A stretch of 64,000 bases of DNA, taken from positions 15,594,485 through 15,658,484 of the forward strand of contig NC_134027.1 in assembly GCF_964204645.1 (NCBI RefSeq), read 5' to 3'. The position numbers were made by a program, and so were the translations under genes. The notes under the pieces are model-generated. The model worked only from the letters and a program-made list of their open reading frames with translations, was not told the DNA's origin and made no database searches. Origin of the DNA: Tubulanus polymorphus (taxonomy: Eukaryota > Animalia > Nemertea). Positions 21,371-61,944 of the stretch are shown here, one piece after another; position 1 is the stretch's first letter, and each line of letters begins with the position of its first letter.

Positions 21371-21385
21371 TTTTTTATTATGTAA

Positions 21386-22968: not shown

Positions 22969-22984
22969 TTAATTTTTTAAATAA

Positions 22985-24232: not shown

Positions 24233-24264
24233 AATTTTAACTTTAATAAAAATTTATATAATAA

Positions 24265-33311: not shown

Positions 33312-33501
33312 GATATGTTGGTTGATTTTGTAACCATGATTTCAATTCACTATATTTTATACCACCATGTGGGTGCCGTACGGCGCCATCACCATTTTCA
33401 TTATCAGATTTAATTTTACCCCATAATTCTGCAACGTTAGAATATGATACTTCACTTTCTGGGTTATAATATAAATCTCTTAAATATTGTTCTTTTTTCA
33501 T
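33312..33501 (-). pseudogene. int: P1 integrase N-terminus (separated by the BEL insertion)
   Basis: KEQYLRDLYYNPES...WLQNQPTY joins in frame to QIHKKMDK once the retrotransposon is removed; matches the P2 integrase N-terminus. Confidence 0.88.
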
Positions 33502-33507
33502 CTTCTT

Positions 33508-33861
33508 TTAATCCATTAATAATAATTTAGATTTAGTTTCAATGGCTTTATGATTTGACTTATTTTCTGGTATGATAGGTTTATTGTCATTGGAATCATC
33601 ATCAGATTTGAATTTTGATTTATATATTACACCGGATAATATAATAACTGTTACTAATCCAATTGTAATATATAATTTATAATTACTTCCAGCATTAGAA
33701 GAATCAGATGGATTATTATTTGAATCAATATCAGGTGATTCATTTATATCAGTTAATTTCTTTTTCTTAGCTTTTTTTAATTCTGAAGACCTTTTACCTA
33801 ATTCTCTTGCCCATTTAATTTTTTTCTCTGATCTAGCCTTTTTCTTAACTCCATCACTCAT
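33508..33861 (-). CDS. Small basic single-TM Polinton protein
   Basis: KKxRSxKxIxWxRxLGxxS motif plus a TM segment; homolog at 59930-60313. Confidence 0.7.
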   Translation of the reverse strand: MSDGVKKKARSEKKIKWARELGKRSSELKKAKKKKLTDINESPDIDSNNNPSDSSNAGSNYKLYITIGLVTVIILSGVIYKSKFKSDDDSNDNKPIIPENKSNHKAIETKSKLLLMD

Positions 33862-33867
33862 TTATTT

Positions 33868-34456
33868 TAGTTAATTTTTGTTCTGATTCATTTTCTGTTT
33901 CGACGTTTGGTTGTAGTACATCTGTTTCGTTCTTACCTGATTTATATTCCATAGGCTTGATGCTCGAAAATGTTATGACGCCAGTAGAAATTAATGTCAT
34001 AACCGATCCTAATTGAAATGAAGCATAACCAACCCATTATTGTAATTCAGTCATAACTAAGTAGTCATTTTTCAAATCACTATATAATTTATTTTCATCA
34101 TTAATTGGTATTAACCGGTTACATAACTTAGAATAACATTTGACAATACCATCTGAAATAGAATCATTTATTCGGGCCAATCTTGCCTCTTCATAAATCT
34201 TAAAATATTTTATTACTTTATCTGGTTTCATAGCATCTAATTCTTGAAAAGTTATTATTTTCCCGATAAACTGATTACATTTCCCGCCAGCAATTAATAA
34301 TTGAAGATGATGCTTACAATATAAATAGTATTCATAATCAATATTGTTATTAACTTGAATAGAATTAGAAACAACTGTATCTTTATTATCACTTATGCCC
34401 AAATCATCTAATATTTTTTCAATATCAATACTATTCTTACTCGATTTCTTTGACAT
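33868..34456 (-). pseudogene. Conserved Polinton hypothetical protein (in-frame stop at 34037)
   Basis: YEYYLYCKH...ARINDxIS...LYSDLKN; intact homolog at 59392-59997. The 3' boundary is approximate. Confidence 0.75.
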
Positions 34457-35602
34457 TTATATTAGAGAAATTTAATAAGAAAAATATTATTAGTATTCTG
34501 ATACTAGATAGTTAAAGGTAAATAATTCTAGTATTCACTACTGATACTAGCTATTTGAATTTAAAGAATTTCTATTTGAATCTATTCAAAATATAAAGTA
34601 TTCTCTTTTGAAAAGCAAGTATCAAAAATATAATAGAATTCACTAGCTAGTTGAAGTTATTGTTTTTTAAATACTTTTTATTTAAATTAGGATTTAGATT
34701 ATCTCACTACTATTGTTTATCTATAGGAGCAGTAATTATAACTGTCCAGATAAGTCATTTCGGATTCTCGATAATAAATCCTCAAACTGAAAATAAATTC
34801 AAAGAAACGACTGGTGGAAATACTATTTCATAAACACACATATATTTTATTCTACAATCATTATCGATTTCCACATTCCAAGCCGCTCGGCAGCCGAGCG
34901 GTAAGGTATGCGTGGAATGCAGGAATCAATAAAGTATAATACAACATCTGTCACTGTGTGTGACATTAACAACAGCTGAATGACGCAATTGAAATTCCGG
35001 CAAACGTAATGCATTGAAAGCCTATACAGTATGGCTAAACTGCTACAGTCTCATGAGTTGAAATATCCATAATTTCTGATTCCACATCCTCCTATCTTCA
35101 CTTTCTTGATTCAATGGTCTTCATTTTGTTTTCTAAAAGATAAATATCTAACGTAGAATAAAACTAACTTGAAGTTGTAGATGTAAAATATTAATTACAA
35201 CACTTAAACATAACCATTTGTGGCGCATCTTACCAGGATAAGTTTTACATGTTTAACGTTTCCCAACGCCTTAATAACAACAAAAACAGTACTTACATTT
35301 ATAACTGTAAACTCCTAAAATTGTGTTTATAGAGAGAATATCCTATACGTTCCTATGCTTATGTGCTGCGCGTTTATAACTGCCAGTTATTCACTAGCTA
35401 AACACTGTCTGTGCAACAGATGTTCTTTTGTAATGTTATTGATTAATCCTTTTCAACTGAAATAGAACATTCGATCAATATTCAAATGAGGTACACCCCA
35501 TTCAACTGAATATAACGTGCGACAGATGCTTTTGTAAACAACCTAATACAATTACATATAGGCGGTTTGACATAGATCGAGAGTAACCGGTTTTCTAAGC
35601 GT

Positions 35603-36256
35603 TTAACATTCAACGTATTTTTCATTATATGTTGAATTCCATAATTCAACAAATGTCTTTGCTTTATCCAGTTGATCTAAATATAACTGTAAATCTAGTT
35701 TGTTAGATTTAATTATGTTTTCCTTCTTTTCTAAAGGTCTTAAATTCTTCCAACCCCAAATAAGTTTTTTATTGTATTCATCATTCATGTTAAATTTAGA
35801 AATCGGCAACAAATGATCAATATCAAAGTATTCACCATATTTATCTATATTCATTTTATCATCGAATTGATATATTATCCATGATATAAAAAATTCATCT
35901 GAACAACCCAATAAATTAGATAGTGTTTCTGAATGCGTTTCTTTGTTGAATAATTGTGTTAATCTAGATCTTAAACATTGTTTCAATCTAAAATTAAGAT
36001 CTGTTTGATATCTTTCTCTTTTATATTCTGTCATATAATCATTATAAGCTTCTCTATTATCTTCTCGATATTGTTTGGTATATAGTTTAGTACAAGTTTT
36101 ACAGCAATATTGAAAACCATCTTTGCTAATCTTACGCTTATTAAATTCTGTTAAAGCTAATTTATCTAATTCACATTTAGAACACTTCTTGTAGTATATA
36201 TTTATGACGCCAGTGTTATTTGTAATATTGATAGTTTGTGGTTGTTCTGGTTCCAT
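35603..36256 (-). CDS. HNH/endonuclease-VII-like nuclease of the giant-virus type
   Basis: CSKC...FNKRKISKDG...CKTC Zn module, LLGCS, IDHLLP and NLRPLEKKENIIKSNK. Confidence 0.75.
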   Translation of the reverse strand: MEPEQPQTINITNNTGVINIYYKKCSKCELDKLALTEFNKRKISKDGFQYCCKTCTKLYTKQYREDNREAYNDYMTEYKRERYQTDLNFRLKQCLRSRLTQLFNKETHSETLSNLLGCSDEFFISWIIYQFDDKMNIDKYGEYFDIDHLLPISKFNMNDEYNKKLIWGWKNLRPLEKKENIIKSNKLDLQLYLDQLDKAKTFVELWNSTYNEKYVEC

Positions 36257-36271
36257 TTATTATACATATTT

Positions 36272-36872
36272 TTTTACTAAATTGATTTTAGAAGTTCAAT
36301 GATTTATATCATGTATTATTTCAATCACACTTTACTAACACTTTTAATGTTTAAAAATCTAACTCATACAAATATGAATATTGAAGTAATGTTGTAAATA
36401 TATACTTTTATATTGAATAATCTGTCAATTTAAATGTTATTCATGTACATGATTATTTTAAGAGTAATAGGGGTAATGGGCTTTCAGGTTAAAGGTTGAA
36501 TGGTCGAGTTCATTAAAAACAAATATTAAAAGTAATTTAAAACTATAATATATTTTCATAACCGTGTGTATTTCAGTTGAATAATAGAATAATTATTATT
36601 ATTAAAATATATTTGATTATATGAATTTGTGTATTGTAAATAAATCAATTGGTCGCGGAGCGGAGCGGTAGCGAAGTGGAGCGACCAATTGATTTAATAC
36701 AATATGCTTTTAAAATTAAAATTATTAATATCTTAGAATGAATATTTAGTTATAATATAAAATACACACGGTTATGAAAATATATTATAGTTTTAAATTA
36801 CTTTTAATGTTTTGTTTTTTAATGAGCTCGACCCTTCGACCTTTGGCCTGAAAGCCCATTACCCCTATTACT
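36272..36872 (-). repeat. P1 right TIR
   Basis: Inverted copy of the left end; 36463-36872 is itself a fold-back. Confidence 0.9.
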
Positions 36873-44520: not shown

Positions 44521-44704
44521 ATGCAGTCCCACGTAACATTGCACAACGGGTCGATGTTGGTAAGCATAATTGGCCCAATGATGGTTACCAATGTCGGACC
44601 AACATTGGACTTACTCATCGGTAATTGGAAGATGTGGGTTTCAGATCAGAGTACTAGAGTACTAGACACCACTCATCACCACGAGTAATTTTTTTTCCTT
44701 ATAA

Positions 44705-47700
44705 ATGGGAGAGAGTGAGTACCAGACAGAAAACAATAATGTTAATAAAAATCAATATTATTGCCCATATTGTAAAAAATACATCGATAAATCTAATAAA
44801 TCTAAACATGAAAAATCTTCAAATCATATAAAAAATGTAATAGATTTTGAAACTCCAGAAAATTCCAATGAAAGAAAAGAAAGATTAGAAAATATGAATG
44901 TGGATGAAATAAAATGCGAAGTTTGTAATGAATTTATAGTAAAAAGGAATTATAATAGACATCTCGAATCACAAAAACACCACCAAAATTTGAGTAATAA
45001 TGTTTTAGGAAAAGCTTATTTTGACGATAAACCTCAAAAAGTAAAAAAACCAAATTCAAAAACTAAATCCATTTCAAATAAACCTTACATGGAAAATGTT
45101 AGAAATTATATTGATTCACTAGAAATAAAAGATACAATTGAAATTTTAGAAACATTACATAGTAAAATTGGTCCTGCAGCTATTATATTTAGATTTTTTA
45201 AAGGTACAACAATAGAAGATTATAGTACATTTAATGAAATAATAGAAAAAATACTAGATTTAATAACAGATGTTGAATATCCAAAAATTAGTATCTCTGG
45301 GAAAGTAAGTTTTATAAAGTCAGAAGAAAAAATGGATTATAATATTCAAACACACTCTGTGTAATTTCAAAAACACAAATAAAAGAGAAGTTAGAAAAAA
45401 TATTTAATGAATTTAAACGTCATATTGAAGAAAGATATTTTGAGGGTTCTGGCTTAACATTGAACGAAATTATATATTTAGATTTAAATGTTTATAATAC
45501 AAAGAGGAATAAAACATCAAAAAGTAATAAAATGTTTAAAAATGATTCAAACTTTACAACAGAAAAGGATATTAAAGCATCATCTTATATTAAATTACCA
45601 TTTACAACAAAAGCAGTAATAAATGTTCAAAATGAAGATAATAAATGTTTTCTATGGTCAATTATTAGTTGCTTACATCCAACACAGGAAAATGTTTGTA
45701 GAATAACAGATTATCGGAAATGTGAAACATTATATAAAATTGATCAATATCCAGTAACTATAAAAATGACACCCAAAATAGAAAAAATTAATAATTTAAA
45801 AATAAATGTATTCGAATTAATGCAATTACCAAAGACAAAAGGTGAAAATATTAAAGATTATACATTGGATGCTTTATATTTAACAGAATATTATGATGAT
45901 GAAAATGCTATAGATTTGTTATATTATAAAAAAGATGAAAATGAACATTATATGTGGTTAAAACAAATTGATTTATTCTTTAGAACAGAAAGTGATCATC
46001 ATCGTAAAATTTATCTATGTAGAAAATGTTTATCTAAATTTATGACTGAGAATACATTATTAAAACATAAAGAATTATGTGATAATAAAGATTTTTGTAA
46101 ATTAATAATGCCAACAGAAAAAGATTATAAATTGAAATTTACTAATCATAAATTTAAGAATATTGTTCCATTTGTAATTTATGGGGATTTTGAATCGTTG
46201 AATAAAGAATTAACTGATCAAGATAGAAAAGAAATATATAACAAAAAGTAATTATTAAAATCAATGGATAAAGGAAATGAATTAAATGAAGACGCAACAC
46301 AAGACCCACCAATTATAAATACAATTAAAAAAGTTCATCAAAGAGCTGCTGCTTATGGAATTTACATCAAATCAAATTATCCCGAATTATATGAAAGTCA
46401 ATATATTTCTTTTAGAGGTGAAAATGTAGTTAATGATTTTTGTAATAAAATAATTGAATTAGAAAGTGATTTTGCAAAATTATTAAACAAAAATTAAAGA
46501 ATAGTTATGACAAAAGAAGATGAAATTGATTTTAATTATGCAACTCATTGTTGTTATTGTGAAAAAAGTTTTTATTCATTTGATAAAAAAGTTATAGATC
46601 ATGATCATTTAAATTCAAAATATCGTGGAGCTGCTCATGAAGATTGCAATTTACAAGCTAAGAAAGTTAATTTCGTACCAATATTATTTCATAATTTATC
46701 AGGCTATGATACCCATCTATTTATAAAACAATTATCGGGAAAATTGGGAGCAATTAATCAAGAAATAGAAGAATATAATGCTATGAATGAAGCAAATGTA
46801 AGAAAATATGATTTTAAACTATTAGCTAAAACATCTGAAAATTATATTTCATTTCAATTTGGTTGCATTAGATTTTTAGATTCTTATAGATTTCTAGCAA
46901 GTTAATTAGATAATTTATCAAAAAGTTTAGTTGATAATGATTTTGATATAACTCAATATTATTATCCAAATGAACAAGATTTTAAATTATTGAGATATAA
47001 AGGCGCAATTCCTTATTGATTTTATAAAACACAAATTAACAGAATTATTAAAAGATCAATTTTATGATCAATTAAAAGAGGAGTATGTGAAAGACGAAGT
47101 GTTTAATAGAACATTAAATATTTGGAACCATTTTAAGATGAAAAATCATGGTGAATTAGTTGATTTATATTTAAAATCAGATGTTATGATATTGGCTGAC
47201 ATATTTGAAAAATTTAGAGAAGTTAATTTGAATCATTTTAATGTTGATCCTTGTTATTACTACTCTAGTCCTGGTTTAACCTGGCAATGTGGTTTAAAAT
47301 ATACAAATGTAGAATTAGATTTATTAAAAGAACCAGACATGGTTTTATTATTTGAAAAATCAATTAGAGGTGGAATTAGTGGTGTTATGGGAGATAGATA
47401 TTTTAAAGCAAATGATGAATATAAATTATTATATATTGACGCCAATAATTTATATGGTTGGGCAATGATGCAACCTCAACCATATAAAAATTTTATATTA
47501 ACAGAAGTTGAAAATGGTGATAAAACTGATTGGGAAAGCGCAATTGCGAGTTTAAAAGATGAAGCACCAATTGGTTATTTCTTTGTAGTTGATTTAGAAT
47601 ATCCTGAAAATATAAAGTTTAAAACAAGAAACTTACCTTATTGCCCAGAACATTTAACTGTAGATGATAGTTATTTAAGTGAATACCAGAAGAAAATAAA

Positions 47701-49755
47701 ACCGAAAGATCATGTTTTTACAGAAAAATTAATACTTACTCAAAATAATAAATACGATTATATTGTTCATTATAGAATGTTAAAATTTTATCTAAAACAA
47801 GGAATGAAATTAAAGAAAGTACATAGATATATTGAATTTAATCAATCGAAGTGGTTAGAAAAATATATAGATTTCAATACTCAACAGAGAACAATATCAA
47901 AAACAGATTTTGAAAAAGATTTCTTCAAATTAATGAATAATAGTTTTTATGGTAAAACATGCGAAAATATTAGAAATAGAAATGATATTGAATTAGTGAA
48001 TAATTCTGAACGATTAAGACATTTACAATCAAGTCCTAGACATTTAGGAAATAAAAGATTTGAAGATTATTTAACAGCAGTTAAATTAAAAAGAACGTCA
48101 ATGAAATTTAATAAACCTATATTTATTGGTTCAACTGTTTTAGAAGTATCAAAATTATTAATGTATGATTTTTATTATAATGTTTTACAACCACTTTTTG
48201 GGGAAAAGCATATTGAAATATTATATTTTGATTCTGTAACAGCTGACACCCCAATATTATCAAAATGTAATGATAAAATATTGATAAGAAGAATTACAGA
48301 AATAATTCCAAAACAAAATGAATGTTATATTTCATATGGTTAAAAAAAGAATTAATACAAATAAATGGATTAATGAATGTTTGGACAAGAAATGGATGGA
48401 AAAAATTAGAGAATATTATTAGACATAGAACAAATAAGAAAATCTATAGAGTTAGAACTAAATTAGGGTTTGTAGATGTTACAGAAGATCATAGTTTAAT
48501 TAAACGAAATGGCGATGAAATAAAACCAACTGATATAAAAATTGGATATGAATTATTACATAAAAGATTTTTCCAAAGAATGAATCATATGTCATTTGAT
48601 GAAATTATTGATAATATTTTTAATATAGAACCCGAAACATTAGAAGAAAAAGAATATTTGATCAAAGGATTTTTCATGGGTGATGGTTCAGCAGGTGTTT
48701 ATAATTATGTTAATCGCACTCAATATTGCTGGTATTTATGCAATCAAGATTTGAAATTATTAGAAAGAATAAAGAAATTCAGTGAAGAAGTTTATTCACA
48801 TAAAGCATTCAAAATCATAGATGTTATGCAATCATCGCAATGTTATAGAATACATGTGAATAATCCTAAAGATTTTGCTATAAAATATAATGATGAATTC
48901 TATATTCATGCAATAGTGAAAAGTAATACTTCAACTAAAGAAAAAATAGTGCCAGATTATGTATTAAATGCAAAAAATAATTTAAGAAAATGGTTCTCCA
49001 TTGGATTCTATGCCGCAGATGGCACTAAAAAATGTACAAAGGATAAAAAGATAACCTTTGCACAGAAAGGAAAAGTTGCTATATCAGGATTAAATATATT
49101 ATGCAATTCATTAGGATTCAATATGAATATTGGATTGATTAAATCTAAACCAAATTGCTTTAATCTAAGCCACACAGAAAAAGATTTAACAGAAGAAGTT
49201 AAAGATTTATTTGAAATATATAACCCAACAGATTATGTTTATGATTTATCAACTGAAGATGGTACATTTAACTGTGGATTTCCATTAATAGCCAAAAATA
49301 CTGACGCCTACATACTAAAAATCAAGACAAATGACATAACAAAAGACTTAAAAACATTAAAACATTATTTTGATTTTAGCAATTATCCCAAAGATCATGA
49401 ACTATTTAGCAATGATAATAAAAAGATTCCTGGTAAATTTAAAGATGAATTAGGGGGTGATGAAATGATTGAATTTGTTGGGATAAGAAGTAAAATGTAT
49501 AGTTATAGAACAAAAGATCATGAAGCTAAAAAGTTAAAAGGAATAACAAAACATGTGGTTGATAAACATATAGAATTTCAAGATTATATAAAGTGTTTAT
49601 ATAAATCAATTGTAATGAAACACAAAATGAATTGTTAAAGATCAGAAGATCACGAGATGTACATTAATGAAGTTGAAAAAACTAGTTTAAATCCATTTGA
49701 TGATAGAAGGCATATTTTAGATTATGGTATAAAAACATTACCTTATGGTCATTAA
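44705..49755 (+). pseudogene. polB: P2 pPolB with intein (several nonsense/frameshift lesions)
   Basis: Colinear with P1 pPolB (YGDFES, FHNLSGYD, YIDANNLYG, KLMNNSFYGKT); motif C is split as YFD|...|TDAY. Confidence 0.93.
48233..49299 (+). mobile_element. Intein with LAGLIDADG homing endonuclease in pPolB motif C
   Basis: Block A SVTADTPIL, block B VDVTEDHSLI, two LAGLIDADG motifs (LIKGFFMGDGS, FSIGFYAADG), block F DYVYDLSTEDGTF and block G LIAKN|T. The insert is 1067 bp with one frameshift at ~48340 and is absent from the P1 ortholog. Confidence 0.93.
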
Positions 49756-51077
49756 AACATAAAATCAATATCATCATACTCGAAATCACTATTGGCTTCT
49801 TCATTTTCATTTAATTGTTTAGGTTCTTCTTCCATTTCATTTTTCTCATTTAAATAAAGTTCTATCTTGTTCCACATTTCATCTCGCTCTCTTTGTTTCT
49901 TTTTGTTTGTTAATTCATCAAATGGAATTATAATATCTATGTTTAAATAATTTACAATCTTATTTATAAAGAATTCATAATTTATTGAATCTGTTATTCT
50001 ATTTTCCAAATGATACATTAATATTTGTTTGAATATTTGTTTGAATATTTTTTTAATATTTTTCATATCTTCTGTTAATTTAGGTTTTTCATAATAATCG
50101 TTAAATAATAAATATAAATACATTTTCTTTTGTTTTGTGTTAAATGTTGACGGAATAATTGTTTTTATAATATCTTTTTTAGTTATTTCACCATTTTTAT
50201 GTTCTATTATTTTCATTTTTTCAAGCCATTGCATATATTCTAGTGTATGATCTTCTATAGAAAATATTTTAAAAATTTCATCTAGATAATTTAATTTTGG
50301 ATGTATGAGAAAATTTCTAGTTTTTTCTTCACCCCATAAATTCTTTTGCCATCCACATTCATTACAAAATAACACAGTACCTTCTTGTCTTAAGGTCGCA
50401 TAACTACATTGTGGACATTTTCGTTTATAATTTATTAGTAATAGATCTTCATTAAGCTCTTGGTATTTTCTTACGTTTTCTTTATGTTTTATTGTTCTAT
50501 TATGTAGATTTGAATTACTTGTTGTAATAATCAATTCACAATATTTACAATAATATGTTTTTCTTGTTAATTCATTATATTGTTTTTCTAACTTTTCAAC
50601 TGTTTCTTTATTATCTGGTAACGTTTTCTCATATTTTATTTTTTCTAATAAAATATTTTTTCTTTCATTGAATTCTGCTTCAAATTTCTTAGAAATTTTA
50701 TCTATATGTGCTTTACGAAATTGATGATTCTCCCAATCTTCTGTATTTTCAGGGCTATATTTCATTCGACAAGGCTCACAGAAACGATCTTTTATATTAT
50801 CCTTATCATAGAATAAGAAAGGTCTTTTCCAAATAATTTCAGGTTCAACTTCAACAGAATTACTATTACTTTCGTTACTATCAACATTAGCCGTTGCGCC
50901 ATTAATTTTACACTTCTCTGAATGTTTTTAAACATAATTTCTTGAGAATAATATATTACATTTTGGGCAGTTTAGTTTAGGGGGTTTATAATTTTCATCA
51001 TGTTTTTTCATATGTCGAGCCATATTACTTTTTCTTAGAAGTTCACCATAAATTTCGCATGCTATCTTCTCATCCAT
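49752..51077 (-). pseudogene. VLTF3-like (poxvirus A2/NCLDV late transcription factor) protein with extra N-terminal Zn fingers
   Basis: Zn ribbon CPQC...FCNECG followed by a helical domain ending RITDSINYEFFINKIVNYL...LTNKKKQRERDEMWNKI. The true start is TAAATG at 51077, with a nonsense codon near 50928. Confidence 0.65.
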
Positions 51078-51145
51078 TTATTTAGGAAAAATTTTATTAA
51101 AATTAATTTTTAGTGATGAGCGGTAATTTTTTTATGTTATAAATA

Positions 51146-51901
51146 ATGGTAGAATTAAAAGAATACAGAATATTTGTTGATTGTAGAAAACTTACAAATT
51201 ATAAATCACATAATTTACTAGTACAATTAGATAGAGAATTTAAGAATTGTGTAGATTTAAAATTAGTTAATATAAGTTTATGTAACTCATTTTATAATAT
51301 AACGGCTAAAACTTTTGAACATAGAGACTTTTTAATTCATATTGGAAATAAAAATAAATGGTTTCATCTATTTTTAAAACCAGGATTATATAATTTAGAA
51401 ACATTAGCCCAAGAAATTAATCGGAAAGCACGATTAAAACTTGAAAGTGAAGATAAATTTTCAATTAGATTTATAAAAAGTGATAGTTCTGATAAAATTA
51501 AAATAAAGTTAGCCAATGAACAAAATAAATTTATGGTAAACAAACCAATAGCTAAAATGTTAGGAATTAAACCGCGTATTGTTACTGGAAACGTAGAAGG
51601 TAGCTCAAATATAATACCTTACACACATTTCTATATTTATTGCAATTTAATTGACCCAACAAAAACATTTGAAGCAACTAAAGATACAATTTGTAATTCT
51701 AGTATATTAAATATTTTACCATTAAAAAATGTTAAACAATTTGGAACGCAAATAAATTATAATTTAGCTGAATGTGATTTTAAACCTTGTATTCCGCATT
51801 TTAATAATTTTAGATTAGAAATTAGAAATCATAATGGATATTTAATTGATTTGAATAACTTTCCTGTAATTTATGAATTAGTTATAAGATGTAAAGAGTA
51901 A
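51146..51901 (+). CDS. P2 minor capsid (penton) protein
   Basis: Intact 251-aa ORF with a penton-like motif pattern; homologs in P1 and P3. Confidence 0.78.
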   Translation: MVELKEYRIFVDCRKLTNYKSHNLLVQLDREFKNCVDLKLVNISLCNSFYNITAKTFEHRDFLIHIGNKNKWFHLFLKPGLYNLETLAQEINRKARLKLESEDKFSIRFIKSDSSDKIKIKLANEQNKFMVNKPIAKMLGIKPRIVTGNVEGSSNIIPYTHFYIYCNLIDPTKTFEATKDTICNSSILNILPLKNVKQFGTQINYNLAECDFKPCIPHFNNFRLEIRNHNGYLIDLNNFPVIYELVIRCKE

Positions 51902-51917
51902 TTTTTTCATTATATAA

Positions 51918-52820
51918 ATGAATATAACTGTTGGACCGAGTATATGTTTTGGATTTGATTTTAAACGTGAGAAAGAAATGAAATTTAACATTAATGATGT
52001 AATTACACATATCAAAAATATTACATTTTCTAATTAAACAACATTTGAGTATGAAACAACAATAGATAAAGAAACTTTAAATGTAGAAAAGATTACTAAT
52101 TTAATTAGAGAATCTTTAAGATTTTATGAATTAGATGAAGGTTTTATTATAGATGATATTAAAAAAATAATAATTGAAATATATACAAATGAAACTAGTA
52201 ATGAAATAAATGTTGAATTAATCATAAATAAGTTAACTAAATATTTTGATGATAGTAATTTTTTTGATAAATAAATGAGTGATAATAAGTGGATAATAAC
52301 TGGATCATATAATGGCGCATTACTATCAGTTGGAACTGGTGGGTATTCAATGGTATTAAAAAAAGTATTTAAAATGGGAAGTGTTAATGTTGATAGATTT
52401 GATATAAATGATATTTAAAAGTTAACATTAGCAATTACTTTATCTAATTTAACTATTGATTATTTGGAAAAACAAAAATATATTCCTCCCATATAAATGC
52501 ATAATAAACAAAGAAGACATAACTTAGCGTTAGAGAAATATAATAAAGCTGCAGAAGAATATAGAGAAAAACGACAAAACTATATGGATTATATTAACAA
52601 GGAATTATATGATCAGAAGATTTCACATAGAGATTTTCAATCAGTTGATGATGCAATGAGTTTATATAACGCAGTAACAAATAAAGAAAAATTACATCTA
52701 TACAAACCTAAATTATCAGATTATTATACCCCAAGTAAAGAACAACAGAAATATGATATAATATGGATTTTAGGTGGAACTGTTATTGTTATATTTGTAG
52801 CATATAAATTTACTAATTAG
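51918..52820 (+). pseudogene. Three small P2 structural-block genes (51918-52274, 52275-52496, 52497-52820), each damaged
   Basis: Homologous to 18550-19575. The first two have in-frame TAA codons; the hydrophobic N-terminus of the third is deleted. Confidence 0.8.
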
Positions 52821-52838
52821 TAATTTTTTTCTAAATAA

Positions 52839-53273
52839 ATGGAAGATAAAGTTGATAGTATTGATATCATTCCTCATGATATAAATAAAACTAAATTAAA
52901 AATATATTTAGAAAAACAAATATTAGAATTTGAAAGTGACTTAAAGATAAAAAAGAAAAAATATTTAAAAAGTAAAATTAAATATTATTTGATTATTAGT
53001 GGTTCGGTTACAATTAGTTCTGTAATAACATTTCTAGCAATATTCAGTCCATTAACACCTTTAGCTATATCAATTGGTGTGTTAGGATTAAGTTCAAGTG
53101 TTTTAACTGGTATAAGTTCAAAATTAAATATAAAAAGTAATAAAGAAAAAATTAAAACTAATATAAAAGAAATTAATAAATTAAAGAACACACTAAATTA
53201 TATCATAAGTTTAAATGGTCATATAACAGTTGAAGAACAAGATAAATTATTAAAAGAATTAATAAATTATTAA
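52839..53273 (+). CDS. Two-TM membrane protein (P2)
   Basis: Near-identical to 19594-20028. Confidence 0.78.
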   Translation: MEDKVDSIDIIPHDINKTKLKIYLEKQILEFESDLKIKKKKYLKSKIKYYLIISGSVTISSVITFLAIFSPLTPLAISIGVLGLSSSVLTGISSKLNIKSNKEKIKTNIKEINKLKNTLNYIISLNGHITVEEQDKLLKELINY

Positions 53274-53289
53274 TTTTTTAATTATATAA

Positions 53290-54678
53290 ATGGTAGATAG
53301 TTTTCCAAAAGCTTTCCAATATAATAAATCAATTAAATATAATATTCCAGCAATAGATTTTAATAAAGATATTACATATAGAAATGAAGTTTTAGATTCA
53401 CTAACTAATTTAAAAATTTATGTTACTGAAACTAATAATTTTAATGCAAAGATGGAAAATATATTTCATGTATATTTAATTAATTTTAAAAAATTGAAAG
53501 ATGAAAAACAATGGTTATTAAAATCTAATATGAAGTATTGGCAGAACCAATTAAATTTTGCTGTTTATTGTGCAACAACGGGTTGTGGAATTAGTTGGAA
53601 TGATCATTTGAATAATTCTAAATATAAATTAATTCAAAGTTTATTTAGATTTCATACATACTTTCAAATAAGAATAATATTAAATGAATTAGAGTGCGCT
53701 TTACCAGGATCTAGGTATTTTAAAGAATTAGATAATTATATTAATTTATCAAAGTTTTATAAAATTTGTAATGAATTTAACATAGATATAAATAAATCTG
53801 ATTTTAGAACAAAAATTGGAACAATAAGATCACTTCCTTGCCCTAAAAAGATTGCAGAATATTGTGCACTTCCCATACCATCTAATAGCTTTTATAATAT
53901 CTATAGTAATAAATTAGGTTATGGTAAAATAGAAACTAAGGATTTAGAAACATTAAATTTCAATAAATTACCGACATTTTATGATAATTTAAAACAAGAA
54001 AACAATAATGGTTGGGTTTATTTCATTTTAGAAAATAATGAAGGTTTTACAAAATCAGGTATACAAAGAATAAATCAATCTATTAGAACTTATTTGATAT
54101 GTATTTTAGGTGCGCAAGTTGAAACAAGATCCCCAATAATTGGAAATTTAAATACATCATTTGATACACAGAAACAATTCAAAGTATTATTTGAAGATTC
54201 TATTCATAATGATAAAAATAGATCGATTCCAGAAAACATTGTAAGATATCAAAATTATTTAGATAAATCACATATTAGATTAAATTATTGTATAGGCCCT
54301 AATCTATTTATTATTTCTAATGATTTAGTATTAAAGATGGGAAACATAATTGGTTATAATAATCTAATTAAAACTGCAACAATAAATAATTCATTTGGAT
54401 TGAATGATATAAATAAAAAGATAATTACTGCTCCAAAATTAATGGAAGGTGAAAAAAATAAAAAACATATTCAATCAACAGAAACTAAAACTAGGAATAT
54501 TAAATTGGATAATGATTCCAAAATAAAAGATTACAATACTACAGAAAATATTAAAACTGATAATATTCAACATGATATAATTAAAGCTGATAATGATAAT
54601 AAATCCCATGAAAATACTAAATTAGCTATAACTTGTATAGGAATTGTAATCGGAGGAATATTATATTTTAAATTTTAA
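53290..54678 (+). CDS. Conserved Polinton protein with C-terminal TM anchor (P2)
   Basis: 462-aa homolog of 20045-21370 with a divergent central segment. Confidence 0.8.
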   Translation: MVDSFPKAFQYNKSIKYNIPAIDFNKDITYRNEVLDSLTNLKIYVTETNNFNAKMENIFHVYLINFKKLKDEKQWLLKSNMKYWQNQLNFAVYCATTGCGISWNDHLNNSKYKLIQSLFRFHTYFQIRIILNELECALPGSRYFKELDNYINLSKFYKICNEFNIDINKSDFRTKIGTIRSLPCPKKIAEYCALPIPSNSFYNIYSNKLGYGKIETKDLETLNFNKLPTFYDNLKQENNNGWVYFILENNEGFTKSGIQRINQSIRTYLICILGAQVETRSPIIGNLNTSFDTQKQFKVLFEDSIHNDKNRSIPENIVRYQNYLDKSHIRLNYCIGPNLFIISNDLVLKMGNIIGYNNLIKTATINNSFGLNDINKKIITAPKLMEGEKNKKHIQSTETKTRNIKLDNDSKIKDYNTTENIKTDNIQHDIIKADNDNKSHENTKLAITCIGIVIGGILYFKF

Positions 54679-54694
54679 TTTTTTTATTATATAA

Positions 54695-56152
54695 ATGGAT
54701 GTAGAAGGTGGAGAAGATATTGGAATGGATAATTTTGATGAACCTGGCATAACTGATGAACAACCGCCTGATTTTGATGAAACAAGTTTTAATGATGGTA
54801 ATGAGCCAGAATATAATAATAATTTGAATATGCCTGATTATATTAAAAATGCAGAATCACAATTAAATCCTGAAAATTTAGACCCAGATTTAGTAAAACA
54901 AGATTTAGATAATTTAAACAAAATACCTAAATTAGAAGATTTAATTGAAAAATCTAAACTTAACATAAATGATGAAGACGTTGGACTTTTAGCAGATCAA
55001 TTAAAATTTTTAGATAATGGTTAATGTTATTATCGTTTGAAAGGTGATTATTATATTGATATCACTCATAAAAATAATAAAAATAAAATATTATCAGAAT
55101 CAACTTTAGAAAAATTAAAACCAGATAGAATTAAAATAATAAGTAATAGTAATGAAATAACTGATGTTACACAAAAAGAAATAGATGATAATATAGACGT
55201 ATTTAAACAAAGAATTAATGAATTATTTGAAATAATCAAAAAGAAATCAGAAACAGAAACAACTTCTGAACAGAATATAACTTCCAAAAATAGTAAACTT
55301 AAATCAAATAAAGTTCCAATTGAAAAAATTTTACCGAATGGATTACTTGATGCAACAGATCAAGAATTAGAAGATTTAGATATATATTCTGATAAAGCAA
55401 TTAGAGAAATTATTAGTATAAGACTTGCATCTGATAAAATTGCACATAATAAAAGTATAAGAGATCAAAAAATTATGTATTTAGAAAAAGAATTAACTGA
55501 TAAAAATAAAGAAATAGAACAATTAAAATTAGATAGAGATAATAAAGTTATTGAAGAAATCGAATTAAAAAAAGGAAATGCATATTTAGAAAAAGAAATT
55601 AATAATTTAAAGGATAATTTAGAAGTACAAAAAGAAGAAATTAAATTATTATTAAAATCATATGATTATAATATAAATAGATTAAAAGTTATTTTTAAAG
55701 ATTTATTGATAAAACCAAATTCTGAAATATCACTGAAAGATAGAATAAAGTTATTATTTAAATTAGAAGGAATAACAATTCTTTCAATTCTAACAGCTGT
55801 AACTATGTTATTTACAACAATTGGTTTAGCAATATCAAATGCTTTGAAATCTACTCCTACTCCCAATAAACCGGATAAACCCCCGAATGATAATAATTCT
55901 ATACAAGATAAAGTTAAGGATGGTTTAAAGAAATTAGCAAAATATTTATGGGAACTATCTAAAAAATCTGCTGCAGCATTGCCAGGAGTTATTGCATCAA
56001 TTGTTGGTTTTATATTGAAATCTGCTGGGAATATTCTTAACTTTGCTGCTGAACATATTATTTTATTTTTAATTACAGTTGTAAGTGCTATCATTTTTGG
56101 GTTAGTAAATATGATATCAAAAAGATATCAAGAAAAAAATAATAAAAAATAA
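54695..56152 (+). pseudogene. Acidic/coiled-coil/TM protein (P2), one in-frame stop
   Basis: TAA at 55022-24 where P1 has AAA; C-terminal half nearly identical to P1. Confidence 0.78.
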
Positions 56153-56176
56153 ATAATTAATTTTTTTGTTTAATAA

Positions 56177-57424
56177 ATGAGTGGGAGTTATATAAGTCCT
56201 TCTAAGATTTCTAGAATATCTAATGCTATTAAAGCAGAAAGATCACATTATATAATTACTAATAACCCTTCAAATATTAATCCCGATGAAACTTTATATG
56301 TTAGAATTCCTAGATTAACACAAAATACTTTTTATGTTCCAAATAGTATTTATTTATCAGCCGATATAAAAGTAACTGGCCATGATAACAATTATGTTGT
56401 TGATAATGATGGAAGATATTTGATTAAAAAATTAACTATAAAGATTGGTCCGGAAACAGTTTTCTCATTAGATGATTATAATTTATTTATGCATTATAAA
56501 GATTTATGGTTAACTAAAGAAAATAGAAATGATATGATATTTCAGGGTATTCAATCGGAAAACCATAATAAATTAAGATCAGAAGCTAATGACGCAATAG
56601 TAAGTCGTGCCACAGATAATTTGATTAAAAAGATTTATGGAAGCAAATATAAAATTCCATTAGACTTTGAATTGATAAATAATAATGCACCTTTATATAA
56701 ATACGCAATTCAAGAAGATATTATATTTGAGATAACATTTGCTCCTGTAAATGAAATTGTATTATCTAGCGTTGTTAAAGATATGGGTTATAAATTATCG
56801 AATATATGTTTAGAATATGACACAGTAACTAATGAAAATATTGCTAGCACAATTCAAACTCAATACAATCAAGGATTTTCATTATTATATGATTATATTG
56901 ATACATTTAAAACTGTAACTATTAATGCAAATGATGAAATTATTAATGAGAATATTAACTTCCCAAGAAGATCTATTAAAGGTATATTAATATTTTTTAC
57001 CATTGCAACATATTCTAATGGCGCAATAAAGGTTGATCATTATTATAATCCTGAAATAACAAAAGTAGAAATAACTATCGAAGGAATAGCAAATAAAATA
57101 TTTTGTCAGGGAATGAGAATGATAGATCAATGGCCAGAAATTAGAAAACATTTTATGAATGAAAAAGTAAAATCATTTGAAAATTGTAATATTAATCAAA
57201 TTGATTATTATACCGGCAATAAATATGCATTATGGTTAGATTTTAGAACAACAGAGGATAATTCATTACATGGTTCTGGAAAAAAACTACAGAACACTAA
57301 AGATGGAATACAATTATTCATGAAAAAGAAAAAAGGAAGCTTAAATTTTAAAATGCACATTTATATTATATCTGACGCGCAATTAAATATTGTAAATTCA
57401 CAATTAGATAGTATTCAATATTAG
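56177..57424 (+). CDS. P2 major capsid protein (putative double jelly-roll)
   Basis: Intact 415-aa ORF, same length as and closely similar to the P1 capsid protein. Confidence 0.75.
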   Translation: MSGSYISPSKISRISNAIKAERSHYIITNNPSNINPDETLYVRIPRLTQNTFYVPNSIYLSADIKVTGHDNNYVVDNDGRYLIKKLTIKIGPETVFSLDDYNLFMHYKDLWLTKENRNDMIFQGIQSENHNKLRSEANDAIVSRATDNLIKKIYGSKYKIPLDFELINNNAPLYKYAIQEDIIFEITFAPVNEIVLSSVVKDMGYKLSNICLEYDTVTNENIASTIQTQYNQGFSLLYDYIDTFKTVTINANDEIINENINFPRRSIKGILIFFTIATYSNGAIKVDHYYNPEITKVEITIEGIANKIFCQGMRMIDQWPEIRKHFMNEKVKSFENCNINQIDYYTGNKYALWLDFRTTEDNSLHGSGKKLQNTKDGIQLFMKKKKGSLNFKMHIYIISDAQLNIVNSQLDSIQY

Positions 57425-57454
57425 AAATATAAAGTTAAAATTAAGGATATATAA

Positions 57455-58576
57455 ATGGGTGGTAAAAAAACTCCTAATACTAAAGAACAATATTTAAGAA
57501 ATTTATATTACAACCCTGAGAGTTCGGTTGCTTATTCTTCTACTAAAAATATATGGCGTCAAGTAAAACAAGATAAATTAGATAAGATAATCCCACAAAA
57601 TTTAGTTAAATATAAAGATATAAATGAATTTATGTTAGAACAACCAACATATACAACACATAAAAAAATTGTTAGAAAATATAAAACTCGTAAAACTATG
57701 GTAAGTTATGTAGATCAACAGTGGCAAGGAGATTTAATTGATATGAAAAATGTTAAGAAAGATAATGATGATTATTGGTGGTTATTGAATATAATTTTTA
57801 GTCGTTATGTATGGAGTTTCCCACTTTATAGAAAAGATGCTGTACAAACATCAAATGTTTTAAGAAAATTTCTTTCGGATGATAAACTAAAACCAGAAAA
57901 AATACAATTTGATGATGGAAAAGAGTTTGATAATTCACTTGTTCATGAACTCTTAGATAATCATAATATTAAATATTTTTCAACAAAATCAGATAAAAAA
58001 GCAGCAGTTGTTGAACGATTTAATAGAACATTAAGAACAAGAATGTGGAAATATTTTACAGCAAATAATACTTTTAAATGGATTGATGTTTTACCAAAAT
58101 TGATAGAAGGATATAATAATTCTTATCATTCTTCTATTGGAATGAAACCTATTGATGCTAGAAAACCTGAAAATGCTGAAATTGTTTGGAATAATTTATA
58201 TGGAGCATTTCTTGTAGATGATTTTGGTGAACCTAAATTTAAAGTTGGTCAAAATGTTAGAATTTCTAAGTATAAAAAGATATTTGATAAAGGATACGAT
58301 CGAAATTTTACCAGAGAAATATATAAAATAAAAAAAGTAATAACAACAATACCATATGTCTATAAATTAGAAGATTTAGATGGTGAAGAAGTTGATGGCT
58401 ACTTTTACGAAGAAGAATTAAGTTTAACTACTGAAAATCTAGAACAAGAATATAAAATTGAAAAAGTATTAAAAACAAAAACTATTAAAAGAAAAAAATA
58501 TTCTTTAGTAAAATGGGTTGGATGGCCAGATAAATTCAATGAATGGATATTATCAAGTAAAATTAAAAATATATAA
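57455..58576 (+). CDS. int: P2 RVE integrase with chromodomain
   Basis: WQGDLIDM, QFDDGKEF and VVERFNRTLR, plus a C-terminal LVKWVGWPDKFNEWI; 2-aa deletion relative to P1. Confidence 0.92.
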   Translation: MGGKKTPNTKEQYLRNLYYNPESSVAYSSTKNIWRQVKQDKLDKIIPQNLVKYKDINEFMLEQPTYTTHKKIVRKYKTRKTMVSYVDQQWQGDLIDMKNVKKDNDDYWWLLNIIFSRYVWSFPLYRKDAVQTSNVLRKFLSDDKLKPEKIQFDDGKEFDNSLVHELLDNHNIKYFSTKSDKKAAVVERFNRTLRTRMWKYFTANNTFKWIDVLPKLIEGYNNSYHSSIGMKPIDARKPENAEIVWNNLYGAFLVDDFGEPKFKVGQNVRISKYKKIFDKGYDRNFTREIYKIKKVITTIPYVYKLEDLDGEEVDGYFYEEELSLTTENLEQEYKIEKVLKTKTIKRKKYSLVKWVGWPDKFNEWILSSKIKNI

Positions 58577-59184
58577 ATGAATAAGGAATTATTTATATTT
58601 GAGCCTCATAATATGTTAATTTCTGGCGTAACAAATTGTGGAAAAACTTATTTTATATTAAATTTATTAGAAACTGTTTATGAAAACTATTTTGATAATA
58701 TAGTATTATTTTGCCCAACATATGAATTTAATCAAACTTATGATAGAAATATTACTAGAAATAATAAATTTATTATATTAGATCCTAAAACAGTAAAAGA
58801 AAATTTAGATAATTGTATAAAAATAGCAATTGATATTTATAAAGGATCAAATACATTATTCATTATAGATGATTGTGCTAATCTACATGATTCAAAAGTT
58901 AGAGAAAGTGAGTTATGTTATTTAGCTTTTTCTGGCAGACATTTTGGGATAACAACTTGGGTTTTAAATCAAAAATATAATTCAATTGTTAAAGATTTTA
59001 GGGAGAATATAAGATTTCTAGTTTTATTCTACAATAAAGATAGAAAATCGATGAAAATGCACTTGAGGAAAATGATATTATTCCACATGATTTACATAAT
59101 GAATATATGGATAAGTTGAAAAATATTAAAAGATCAAAATTACTATTTAGATTACAACACCCATTTAAATATGAATTTATTTAA
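58577..59184 (+). pseudogene. P2 packaging ATPase (frameshift near 59060)
   Basis: GVTNCGKT, LFIIDD and GRHFG motifs; the C-terminus RLQHPFKYEFI lies in another frame. Confidence 0.88.
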
Positions 59185-59391
59185 ATTCAACTAGCTTGTT
59201 AATCTAGTTTAATTCTAGTTACATTCTAGTTGAATTCTAGTTGTTAGTAGTTGAAACAAAAATCAACTAGATTTAACTAGAAATAAACAAAAACAACAAT
59301 ATTTCAACTAGCTTGTTAATCTAGTTTAATTCTAGTAACATTCTAGTTGAATTCTAGTTGCAACATCACAACTAATTTATTTGTTATATAA

Positions 59392-59997
59392 ATGGGAGGT
59401 GAAAAGAAAAGAAAATCTAAAAATGCTGATGTTCCAATTGAAAAAACTTTAGATGATTTAGGAATAACAGAAAACAAATTAACTCCAGATGATGGTGCTT
59501 TAAATAATGTTACAAAAAATAATAATTATGAATATTATCTTTATTGTAAACATCAATTAGAAATATTAATAGCATCTGGAAAATGTAAAAATTTTGTCGG
59601 TAAAAATTTAACTTATAATGAATTAGATACAATGAAATCAGATGAAATTATTAGATTATTTAAGATTTATGAAGCCGCGAGAACAGCTAGAATTAATGAT
59701 GCGATATCAGAAAATGTAGTAAAAGCTTATAGTAAATTATGTAATTATATACTACCAATTGAAGATGAAAATAGATTATATTCCGATTTAAAAAATTACT
59801 ATTTAGTTATGACTGAATTAAATAAATGGATTGGATATTTATCATTTCAATTAGGCGGATTTATGACATTATTATCAACTGGGGTTATAACATTTTCAAA
59901 TATTGAAAGTAAAAATATTTCTATAATAAATGAGCGAGGTGAAAGAAGTGAAGGAATTAACTGTGAAGAAAAAACCGAGATCACAGAAACAAATTGA
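59392..59997 (+). CDS. Conserved Polinton hypothetical protein with C-terminal hydrophobic segment
   Basis: 201-aa ORF, homolog of 33868-34456. Confidence 0.78.
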   Translation: MGGEKKRKSKNADVPIEKTLDDLGITENKLTPDDGALNNVTKNNNYEYYLYCKHQLEILIASGKCKNFVGKNLTYNELDTMKSDEIIRLFKIYEAARTARINDAISENVVKAYSKLCNYILPIEDENRLYSDLKNYYLVMTELNKWIGYLSFQLGGFMTLLSTGVITFSNIESKNISIINERGERSEGINCEEKTEITETN

Positions 59998-60313
59998 ATG
60001 GTCTCGGCAATTAGGAATTAAATCACAAGAATATAAAAAAGCTGTAAAAGAAAAAATAAGTAATAAAAATGGTGAAAATATTGTTATTTCTACTCCTTCT
60101 AATAATAGAATATTTGATAAATGTCTATATTTTACAGTTGGATTTGTAATTGTATTCATTTTGATTGGGTGTAATTGGTATAAGAAATCAAATAAAATTC
60201 ATGATATTAATAATTCTGAAACAACTGCTATCAAAAATGAAAATACTTCTGAAATTCCAAAATTGATAATAAAAAAATGGATTAATATTTTAGAAAAAAA
60301 GCAAAAAAAATAA
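59930..60313 (+). CDS. Small basic single-TM protein (P2)
   Basis: KKPRSQKQIEWSRQLG plus a TM segment; TAAATG start; homolog of 33508-33861. Confidence 0.72.
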   Translation: MSEVKEVKELTVKKKPRSQKQIEWSRQLGIKSQEYKKAVKEKISNKNGENIVISTPSNNRIFDKCLYFTVGFVIVFILIGCNWYKKSNKIHDINNSETTAIKNENTSEIPKLIIKKWINILEKKQKK

Positions 60314-61383
60314 TATTTTTTAATTAATTGAATATCTCACTACTTTTGTCTATCTATGCGGAGCAATTAAATTGTCCAGATAAGTCATTTCGGATTCTAG
60401 ATATTCATTATTTTTATTAATTTATTTTGTTTTTACTTGAATATTGTATTACAGTCGTTTCTTATTATTAGTTTTTTCTTAAATTGAAAGATGGCAGCAC
60501 TGGGCGTGTTGCTAAAATGAATATTTGAATTTGAATTTGAATTTGTTTATCAATTAACATAGTAATTTATTACTAATTTGATTAAAAATTATATCATAAT
60601 TAAGTTAAAAATCCATAATTCATTTATCAGTTTTCATTCTTATATTCTTTTCATTCGGAATAATTTATAATTTCAAATTTCACATATTTTTTAGCACCAG
60701 CAACATTTACTTAGGTGTTTTAGCTAAGTATATAAGGCAATTCATTCAACCACTGGAGTAGCTCTGGCCAGCAGAGGCATTTTGAAAATGCACCTTCGTC
60801 CACTCTCCGGGTTTCTCCTTCGGTTTCGAATTTCAAGATTGGTAGAAATTACATTAGGCGCCTTTAATATAATGTGATTTCTGCCAATCATTGAAGGAGA
60901 TCCCGGTTGACGTGGGTCGCGGGGGTGTAAGTAGAAATGACGGGGGATAAGCGTCCCGTGGCGCCTTTCAATAATGGGATGCTTATCCCCTGAAAACTCT
61001 GTAGGTCGAGGATAGGGCAATTTTGCTCAAACTTACCGTAAAAACATTGAAATATTCCTTTTAATCACGAGAGAATGATGACTATCCTTCGTCACGGCCG
61101 AGCTAATTTAAATAAACCTCGCTTTCAGCAACCATTGAAAACGTGGTGGTTCAATGCCGGCTAACTGGCCTGTGTGTGTTGTATGTACTGCGTGCTTATT
61201 ATATAACTGCTAGCTATCCAATATAACAACAACGTTGTGCAACACCTGTTTGATTGATCAATATTCAAATGAAGCACTCTCTTATAATAACATGTAACAG
61301 ATGTTTGACTGTATGATTGTAGTTGTTTATAAAACGACTAAGGTCATTTTGGATTCTAGATATTCATTATTTTTATTTTTTAT

Positions 61384-61710
61384 TTAATCAACAATTTCTA
61401 AATCATGATGACCGTCTTCATTTTTCCCATGATATATTATTTTAAATCCTACTAAATCTTTCAATTCCTCTGTACTCAATGAAACCCATTTATCGGGTAA
61501 AAACACTTTAAATTCTCGTGATGTACTAACATTACAGTAGCTTAAATTAGCTAATACTTTCTCTCCATATTTAGTTTTTATCTTTTCTAATTTCAATATC
61601 TTATGTTCAATTTCTTTTGTAACATCAACTAACTTTTTTATTTCAAATTGTTTTTTTGTTGGTTTAATTCTGTTATTTATTGTTGCTAAGAATGCTTTTC
61701 TATCTCCCAT
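61384..61710 (-). CDS. Small conserved Polinton protein (possible OB-fold SSB)
   Basis: IKKLVDV...TKYGEKVLANL...FKVFLPDKW...YHGKNEDGHHDLEI; homolog of 17407-17760. The start codon lies inside the right TIR. Confidence 0.68.
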   Translation of the reverse strand: MGDRKAFLATINNRIKPTKKQFEIKKLVDVTKEIEHKILKLEKIKTKYGEKVLANLSYCNVSTSREFKVFLPDKWVSLSTEELKDLVGFKIIYHGKNEDGHHDLEIVD

Positions 61711-61944
61711 TTATTAGGGAAAAAAATTACTTGTGGTGATGAGTGGTGTCTAGTACTCTAGTACTCTGATCTGAAACCCACATCTTCCAATTACTCTCAT
61801 CGGCACTGCATTGGCCCATATTTTTTACCGATGAATGACCAATGAACCAACACAATGAGCCAATGAATTCCCAATGAAATACCTATATTTATCCAATGAA
61901 ATGCCATTTATATTCCAGAAGTCAGCCAATGATTTGCCATCCAA

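Follow-up and report, generated by a model that had tools for sequence, protein, structure and literature searches.

An intein in ribonucleotide reductase is known from Chilo iridescent virus, and the intein that Mimivirus carries in its DNA polymerase (PolB) begins with the sequence SVTxDT. The Mimivirus intein has been described as a pol-c allele (Ogata et al. 2005, PMC549080). According to a survey, eukaryotic inteins occur in giant viruses and, among microbial eukaryotes, in fungi, algae and a few others (PMC5784728), and two reviews hold that there are none in metazoan genomes (PMC8529194) and in multicellular organisms (PMC5874633), respectively. In Polintons, HNH and VSR nuclease inserts are described in the polymerase pPolB2 (Jeong et al., bioRxiv 10.1101/2023.08.22.554363; the words "intein", "Hint" and "LAGLIDADG" have no occurrence in its main text), and such inserts of Polinton polymerases have been suggested to stem from intein invasions (Krupovic et al. 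2024, PMC11161782). The present analysis concerns a stretch of 64,000 nucleotides (contig NC_134027.1, positions 15,594,485 to 15,658,484 of the forward strand; from now on referred to as the window), in which P2, the protein-primed PolB (pPolB) gene of a Polinton, is interrupted in its catalytic motif C by an insert with the features of an intein. In the passages covered, the literature did not mention any Hint/LAGLIDADG intein from a Polinton polymerase or an animal genome, although an annotation of one may exist in a supplement, Repbase or InBase; passages of PMC11071308, PMC12220804, PMC11131425, PMC13768754 and of bioRxiv 2026.06.19.733378 and 2026.10.13.758929 likewise hold no description of one.

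When comparing P2 with P1, a second pPolB gene of the window, the interruption is exact. P1 reads KHIEILYFD-TDSYILKIKT without interruption and P2 reads KHIEILYFD-SVTADTPIL...LIAKN-TDAYILKIKT, the hyphens marking the junctions (all coordinates are collected in Table 1). The junction sequences of an earlier note on this DNA were thereby reproduced together with all the motifs it had quoted (SVTADTPIL, VTEDH, two LAGLIDADG motifs, VYDLST, LIAKN and the Thr at +1), and a single frame break was located near 48340, where the note had placed a frameshift. The length of the insert is no multiple of three, both junctions being in frame and the break internal. The designation "full-length" given to the intein is correct for its length but not for its coding frame, as it is frameshifted and the polymerase around it carries two more frame changes and five stops. 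At the break 137 of 170 reads deviate from the window sequence, and the break is therefore atypical of the family. The two sides of the break were treated separately, and trees and folds were made from the 318 residues behind it only. The GC content of the intein (0.257) does not differ from that of the exteins (0.244–0.258), and no further copy of the insert was found within the window.

At the level of sequence the insert is confirmed as a true pol-c-type intein of class 1 and Ser1 type with a LAGLIDADG domain. Hidden Markov models of Hint and LAGLIDADG, which the earlier note had named as a check, gave a divided answer for the window copy: the piece behind the break matches the Pfam profile LAGLIDADG_3 at the cut-off (E 1.3e-4, 22.6 bits, cut-off 22.5) but Intein_splicing below it (E 1.8e-5, 25.1 bits, cut-off 35.8), and the cut-offs are passed by the intact relatives P0043, P0029 and P0001 (38.9–41.7 bits). 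The same piece is matched to PI-PkoII of PDB already at the sequence level (E 1e-4; profile E 7.5e-9). Alignments show that the catalytic positions are invariant or nearly so across 14 Polinton and 50 viral rows. Ser1 is found in 12/12 covering Polinton rows and in 50/50 rows of RNA-primed PolB, and the His of motif NX, which is preceded by Arg or Lys and defined for Ser1 inteins in PMC10189870, in 12/13 and 50/50, respectively. Block B T-x-x-H, block F Asp, the terminal Asn and the Thr at +1 are all present in the window intein. Both LAGLIDADG acids are invariant (13/13 covering Polinton rows for the first motif, 12/12 for the second), and among 11 full-length rows the endonuclease domain is 52.6% conserved versus 53.9% for the N-terminal Hint part. 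The penultimate residue varies within the family, with seven His, four Lys and one Ser in the Polinton rows and 36 Lys, 12 His and two Ser in the nearest viral rows.

Structure prediction gave a fold of Hint plus an I-DmoI-like endonuclease, as in solved inteins. For the AlphaFold model of the intact relative P0043 (pLDDT, a predicted score for the local distance difference test, 82.5) the best PDB matches were TliVMA, PhoVMA, PI-PkoII and PI-SceI (E 5e-16 to 6e-13), and in a viral structure library polymerases of a phycodnavirus, Pandoravirus, Megavirus and Marseillevirus came out on top. The model of the window piece is weaker (pLDDT 64.7) and finds the same PDB structures (E 4e-10). The central claim of the earlier note, a LAGLIDADG intein in the motif of a protein-primed Polinton PolB, thus agrees with motifs, site and predicted fold, and the intact relatives of the P2 polymerase match PF03175.

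Inteins of this family are present in Polinton-type polymerases of ENA, JGI and NCBI records (26 and 104 matches), and the intein clusters have 41, 55, 121 and 136 members. An intact polymerase of 1693 amino acids, P0232 from JGI, carries an intein 62% identical to that of the window; other intact full-length intein-bearing polymerases, all from ENA, are P0245, P0379, P0382 and P0383, and, where 14 mates of P0245 are listed in its cluster, six are intact as well. The insert is in frame in P0232, P0245, P0379 and P0382 and absent from P1 and from 108 of 120 relatives, these being the best of 6130 extein matches, of which four are intein-plus, 108 empty, five unclear and three truncated. In the 55-member cluster with P0003, P0042, P0043 and P0045 many ENA copies are open reading frames (ORFs) of 362–365 amino acids with few extein residues, ending just past the junction with the intein frame intact, and this may be a subfamily whose intein outlasts a decayed polymerase. 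Nine intein-bearing C-junctions, in P0033, P0042, P0045 and others, read TNS for TDS, which removes a catalytic Asp of the polymerase. Related inteins also occur in non-polymerase hosts, namely glycosyltransferase-family-2 proteins (P0024 and P0468, FED-...-TDF) and, as a clade of their own, type II topoisomerases (P0081, P0190, P0196, P0206, P0207, P0216, P0380 and P0422), where they sit at DxD-TDG, a motif resembling the polymerase site. Two Polinton-type polymerases stand under bacterial source labels, P0381 (a clam-symbiont bin) and P0229 (Sulfurimonas sp.), and are probably mis-binned eukaryotic DNA.

A profile search among 1.84 billion representatives gave 4072 matches, and the best 150, which were examined, are mostly RNA-primed PolB with the intein at YGD-TDS, together with topoisomerase inteins. 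An IQ-TREE intein tree was made of 54 rows: 14 Polinton inteins, 35 of RNA-primed PolB (chosen among 139, partly for their similarity and partly at regular intervals) and five of topoisomerases as outgroup. This tree, the comparison with giant-virus inteins that the earlier note had in mind, groups the 14 Polinton inteins in a single clade (100/100) with seven RNA-primed PolB inteins as sister (97/96). In IMG/VR 516 of 568 pattern matches are relatives. The best 80 of these 516 include 32 contigs of giant-virus metagenome-assembled genomes (MAGs), the best identity being 42%; the intein was recovered from 68 of the 80 loci, in all 68 at GD-TDS, and 12 of 15 added giant-virus MAG inteins join the sister group (Shimodaira-Hasegawa-like approximate likelihood ratio test, SH-aLRT, 96; joining branch 94). 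The Polinton polymerase motif is in no ORF of the 68 extracted IMG/VR inteins, and single-protein pattern scans of IMG/VR gave no matches. Scans of metagenomes and GTDB revealed two distant loci (25% identity) and five loci (30–36%), respectively; the metagenome locus L002 resembles a contig of prokaryotic or phage origin and appears unrelated.

The simplest reading of these trees would be that giant viruses passed the intein to Polintons once and long ago, at the base of the Polinton-wide clade, the direction resting on the nesting and on an outgroup of our own choice in trees that cover neither archaeal pol-c inteins nor the Mimivirus intein. The earlier note had proposed a jump during co-infection from a PolB of nucleocytoplasmic large DNA virus type into this Polinton; giant-virus inteins are indeed the nearest, but the event, for which co-infection may have been the setting, appears to be a single old and Polinton-wide one, not one of this lineage. 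The donor would have been a YGD-TDS intein of a giant-virus RNA-primed PolB, and the move may have been enabled by motif C being common to both polymerase types. Gene flow across the divide between RNA-primed and protein-primed polymerases would mean that both parties have shared a cell.

Taken together, it appears likely that the insert is a frame-broken Ser1/Asn/Thr+1 LAGLIDADG intein in motif C of a Polinton pPolB, whose intact members are predicted to be self-splicing and would home between Polintons in a probable animal genome. Judging from conservation, an intact precursor would splice by the class 1 route, with an N-O shift at Ser1 aided by the His residues of motif NX and block B, followed by attack of Thr+1 and cyclisation of Asn, by which DTD[S/A] would be restored. 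Without splicing the polymerase could not work, because the insert splits its catalytic motif. The endonuclease, as distribution and flanks suggest, would cut empty motif C sites in those other Polintons with which it shares a nucleus, and the intein plus a few flanking codons would be copied during repair. The window copy and P1 have by now decayed.

Mobility was addressed with a polymerase tree built on the N-extein less its last 15 residues (136 rows, 23 of them intein-plus). Intein presence is scattered over this tree and needs 19 changes, at least nine of them forced by starred branches; shuffled presence needs 21.5 on average, and 31 of 500 shufflings were as low as the observed 19. The clearest case is the cluster of P0245, where the N-exteins of intein-plus and empty copies are 98–99% identical and lie on long contigs (57 kb to 1 Mb). 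When seven intein-plus rows were set against four empty ones (P0351, P0239 and P0241 left out), fixed differences were absent over 390 residues upstream of -10, and the 20 residues that surround the site held six of them, namely -7, -6, -2, +4, +8 and +9 (p 6e-9). The plus flank in this cluster resembles the plus flanks of other lineages (P0300, P0029). Such a flank is as homing with co-conversion would leave it and is unlike the mark of precise loss. The intein is furthermore shared between polymerases of very different type: the first 1050 residues of P0379 are unalignable with P0232, and the intein of P0379 nests beside the group of the window (99/94). Good indirect evidence exists for recent homing among Polintons and, as homing needs an expressed donor beside an empty target, recent conversion tracts would be indirect evidence of active Polintons that meet.

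Several points weigh on the other side. Trees cannot separate gain from loss, and the sampling is uneven, since intein rows stem largely from searches for the intein, whereas the top 120 of 6130 extein matches supplied the empty ones. With four intein-plus sequences in those 120, the intein is a minority state. The P0245 tract is known from the protein sequences of a single cluster of near-copies, and a single event may lie behind it; four further fixed differences at +23 to +44 imply a longer or crossover-like tract on the C-side. A Cys at -5, present in 20/25 intein-plus and 4/99 empty rows, is not significant as a marker on independent pairs (median p 0.25). Intein and extein identities between several lineages are similar (62/59, 51/48 and 49/47%), which fits long co-descent. 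In the window itself the intein and its polymerase gene are both frame-broken, a dead copy, and the penultimate residue is Lys in place of the usual, though not required, His.

The earlier note had also regarded P1 as an empty allele 32 kb away and the two genes as homing target and donor. The empty site exists and both states do coexist, but P1 belongs to a second subfamily, about 75% identical, and its site is therefore not a strict allele of that of P2 and at most a candidate target; P2, being a dead copy, cannot be a donor now. P1 is as dead as P2, with several frame changes and several stops. Around the site the DNA identity between P1 and P2 is 75% on the upstream side and 78% on the downstream side, and in the tree they fall in different polymerase subclades, closest to P2 being P0223/P0357 (82–85%) and to P1 P0224 (91%); the six nearest polymerase rows of both are all intein-free. 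Of the 30 nt upstream of the junction the P1 site shares 28 with the flanks of P2, but of the 30 nt downstream only 21. A conversion between P1 and P2 was considered, as all 20 residues upstream of the site are identical versus 91/120 (p 0.014). It is not claimed, because synonymous identity is not raised (16/20 vs 58/87, p 0.29).

Copy number was estimated from run X5, whose species label is the same; about 12% of its reads were used, with likeness cut-offs of 88 and 90. Median depth was 199 for the intein, about 290 for the P2 exteins, 495 for P1 and 5–18 for nine host-flank bins, i.e. 11 to 38 times the flank, which is a lower bound if the flank itself is repeated. Intein-plus and intein-minus Polintons coexist in the same genome, in the window as in the reads. 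Only two reads connect P2-type flanks across the insertion site, and the P2 subfamily therefore looks almost uniformly intein-plus. Beyond the terminus of E1, the element harbouring P1, 1439 reads run on into flanks that differ from one another (agreement 0.35), and its family is therefore integrated at many sites. That the empty P1-type persists at higher depth than the P2-type could mean that its site is resistant, that the chance was missed or that the elements expanded clonally.

It is possible, if doubtful, that a true intein homed only between free replicating Polinton genomes in co-infection, the integrated copies being passive and amplified by transposition from an intein-plus founder. 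Clonal expansion would give the scarcity of X5 reads that join P2-type flanks, the P1-type stays empty 32 kb off at about 495-fold depth, and close intein relatives are also found on short metagenome contigs. The P0245 cluster speaks against it, since plus and empty copies about 99% identical on long contigs point to recent exchange among integrating elements, wherever the cut itself was made.

Improbable is a single entry into Polintons followed by vertical inheritance and many precise losses, the endonuclease no longer mattering. That the Polinton inteins are one clade, that intein identity tracks extein identity in several lineages and that the change counts have no direction would all agree with this. 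Precise loss, however, leaves flanking residues unchanged, yet the nearly identical P0245 copies differ exactly at the site; moreover the intein is common to two barely alignable polymerase types, and both LAGLIDADG acids have stayed invariant.

Returning to homing among Polintons, the empty sites may themselves bear traces of it. The four empty near-copies of P0245 are most variable around the site (6/20 versus 5/390 positions), YxD-CDS replaces YxD-TDS in 44 of 108 empty relatives, and Cys at +1 is found in 0 of 35 intein-bearing C-junctions. This variability and the CDS motif may reflect escape from cleavage or plain lineage drift. Two further candidates were discarded: YGD before the P0232 intein as a donor scar, because the empty relative P0241 also has YGD, and TDA in P2 as a sign of decay, as 14 of 108 empty relatives carry TDA. 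More speculative is a live intein gene drive in animal nuclei, in which a homing intein derived from giant viruses would convert integrated germline Polinton polymerases, would have crossed two deep pPolB types and would drive escape in the motif; we put this forward only tentatively.

The host of these Polintons is very probably an animal, as inferred from the many integration sites and from a BEL/Pao long terminal repeat (LTR) retrotransposon within E1. BEL/Pao is a metazoan subclass of LTR retrotransposons (PMC3118150), and the atlas matches of the copy in E1, which is near-complete, are from Eukaryota, Arthropoda being commonest; the clam-symbiont label of the intein-bearing P0381 would moreover suggest mollusc host DNA. 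A protist, fungus or symbiont as host, which would liken the case to inteins already described from viruses endogenous to microbial eukaryotes, is accordingly unlikely, even though no host gene was recognised in the flanks and polymerase inteins of endogenous giant viruses are published from algae and protists (PMC10710043). Three other readings of the insert, as a spliceosomal intron, as a nuclease gene standing on its own or as an artefact of assembly, for which the length of the window copy might be cited, can be dismissed at the level of sequence, as there are no GT-AG ends in any register restoring the junction, Hint blocks stand at both ends, in-frame fusions occur in many relatives, the insert is covered in 30/30 bins by 4/4 read runs and most reads differ at the frame break.

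E1 and E2, the element harbouring P2, are Polinton/Maverick elements by their inverted ends, 6-bp target duplications, pPolB, integrase and ATPase, an rve integrase and an A32-type ATPase being encoded in both. The probable major capsid protein of E2, labelled after its N-terminal motif, had no Pfam or PHROG match, and PHROGs gave no match for six ORFs of the window; no maturation protease was identified. The two elements are mosaic: identity is 91% between 17772–19137 and 51141–52505 and 85–89% between 19262–24276 and 52507–57466, versus 74–78% across the polymerase, and the integrase-ATPase block is inverted between them. Behind the polymerase of E2 lies a reversed ORF (49755–50927, minus strand) that contains zinc fingers and has a Pox_VLTF3-like match (E 7e-7), and an Endonuclease_7 (HNH-type) domain, as described for pPolB2, is found inside the P1 polymerase (14751–15494, plus strand). 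The BEL/Pao element splits the integrase region of E1 and is recent, with long open frames (1415 and 497 amino acids) and 112 bp of its two ends 100% identical. The left end of E1 (12493–13310) is highly variable in reads, 475 of which skip a 436-bp piece at the joint with the best support; in about 1950 a short unit near 12593–12634 is tandemly repeated. To the right of E2 a third Polinton-like piece (62100–64000, minus strand), 80–82% identical to E1/E2 genes, leaves the window, and tandem repeat arrays are located in the host flanks at 8434–9620 and 44238–44559.

Table 1. Positions of the intein-coding insert, the polymerase genes and the mobile elements in the window
Feature	Position	Strand	Remarks
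Intein-coding insert (Hint + LAGLIDADG)	48233..49299	+	Length 1067 nt, with a single frame break near 48340
Ser1, opening block A (SVTADTPIL)	48233..48235	+	From sequence comparison of P1/P2
His of motif NX (IIRH), Ser1-intein signature	48424..48426	+	Assigned by motif and alignment
Block B / N3 (DVTEDH)	48475..48492	+	From alignment
First LAGLIDADG motif (LIKGFFMGDG)	48658..48687	+	Acidic residue retained
Second LAGLIDADG motif (FSIGFYAADG)	48994..49023	+	Acidic residue retained
Blocks F and G (VYDLST ... LIAKN)	49237..49299	+	Block F Asp, penultimate Lys, terminal Asn
C-extein Thr at +1 (polymerase motif C, TDA)	49300..49302	+	From P1/P2 comparison
P2, protein-primed PolB gene, broken	44726..49752	+	Three frame changes (one inside the intein), five stops
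P1, protein-primed PolB gene of second subfamily, broken, intein-free	13350..17374	+
Empty site YFD-TDS	16839..16856	+	Junction between 16847 and 16848
Polinton E2	44620..61795		Terminal inverted repeats of 95 bp, target duplication CTCATC (6 bp)
rve integrase (with chromodomain) and packaging ATPase (A32-type) of E2	57455..59116	+	Pfam PF00665, PF00385, PF04665
E2 ORF, probable major capsid protein	56177..57421	+	Labelled after its N-terminal motif
Polinton E1	12299..36872		AGTA...TACT ends, 6-bp target duplication CCTCGC
BEL/Pao LTR retrotransposon within E1	27009..33311	-	PF05380, PF18701, PF03564

A multicopy intein family in a probable animal qualifies the rule that inteins are absent from Metazoa, its seat being an endogenous virus-like element and not a host gene. 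With the natural pairs of plus and empty copies, direct tests of splicing, cleavage and target escape become possible, and the family may offer Ser1/Thr+1 inteins and nucleases that are likely to work in eukaryotic cells.

Compared with known systems, the intein shares with TliVMA, PhoVMA, PI-PkoII, PI-SceI and PI-PfuI the two-domain fold, but with these solved homing inteins it has only 11–19% identity, other host proteins or sites and, in the window copy, a penultimate Lys. The intein of Chilo iridescent virus, cited in PMC549080, is comparable in that its carrier is an animal-infecting virus; that intein, however, ends in Gln, belongs to a large iridovirus and is not described in that paper as integrated. 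The pPolB2 inserts likewise place a nuclease domain inside a Polinton polymerase, as does the Endonuclease_7 match of P1, but the HNH and VSR inserts lie elsewhere in the protein, with no splicing domain in their descriptions, whereas the window has a complete Hint plus LAGLIDADG in the catalytic motif. The inteins of Gallot-Lavallee et al. 2023 (PMC10710043) are similar in that a viral polymerase intein is found on nuclear scaffolds, with viruses as vectors; those are giant-virus insertions in non-animals, while here a Polinton with its own integrase, a probable animal and signs of recent exchange are involved. The closest parallel is the Mimivirus PolB intein, with the same YxD-TD site, about 350 amino acids, Ser1, Thr and His in block B, a terminal Asn, Thr at +1 and LAGLIDADG. 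It differs in that the host protein in the window is a protein-primed polymerase (PF03175), not an RNA-primed one (PF00136), and that the intein is carried by an integrated multicopy element. Judged by its residues and site, the insert is a genuine pol-c intein; the kind of host gene is new, and so, probably, is the host kingdom for inteins.

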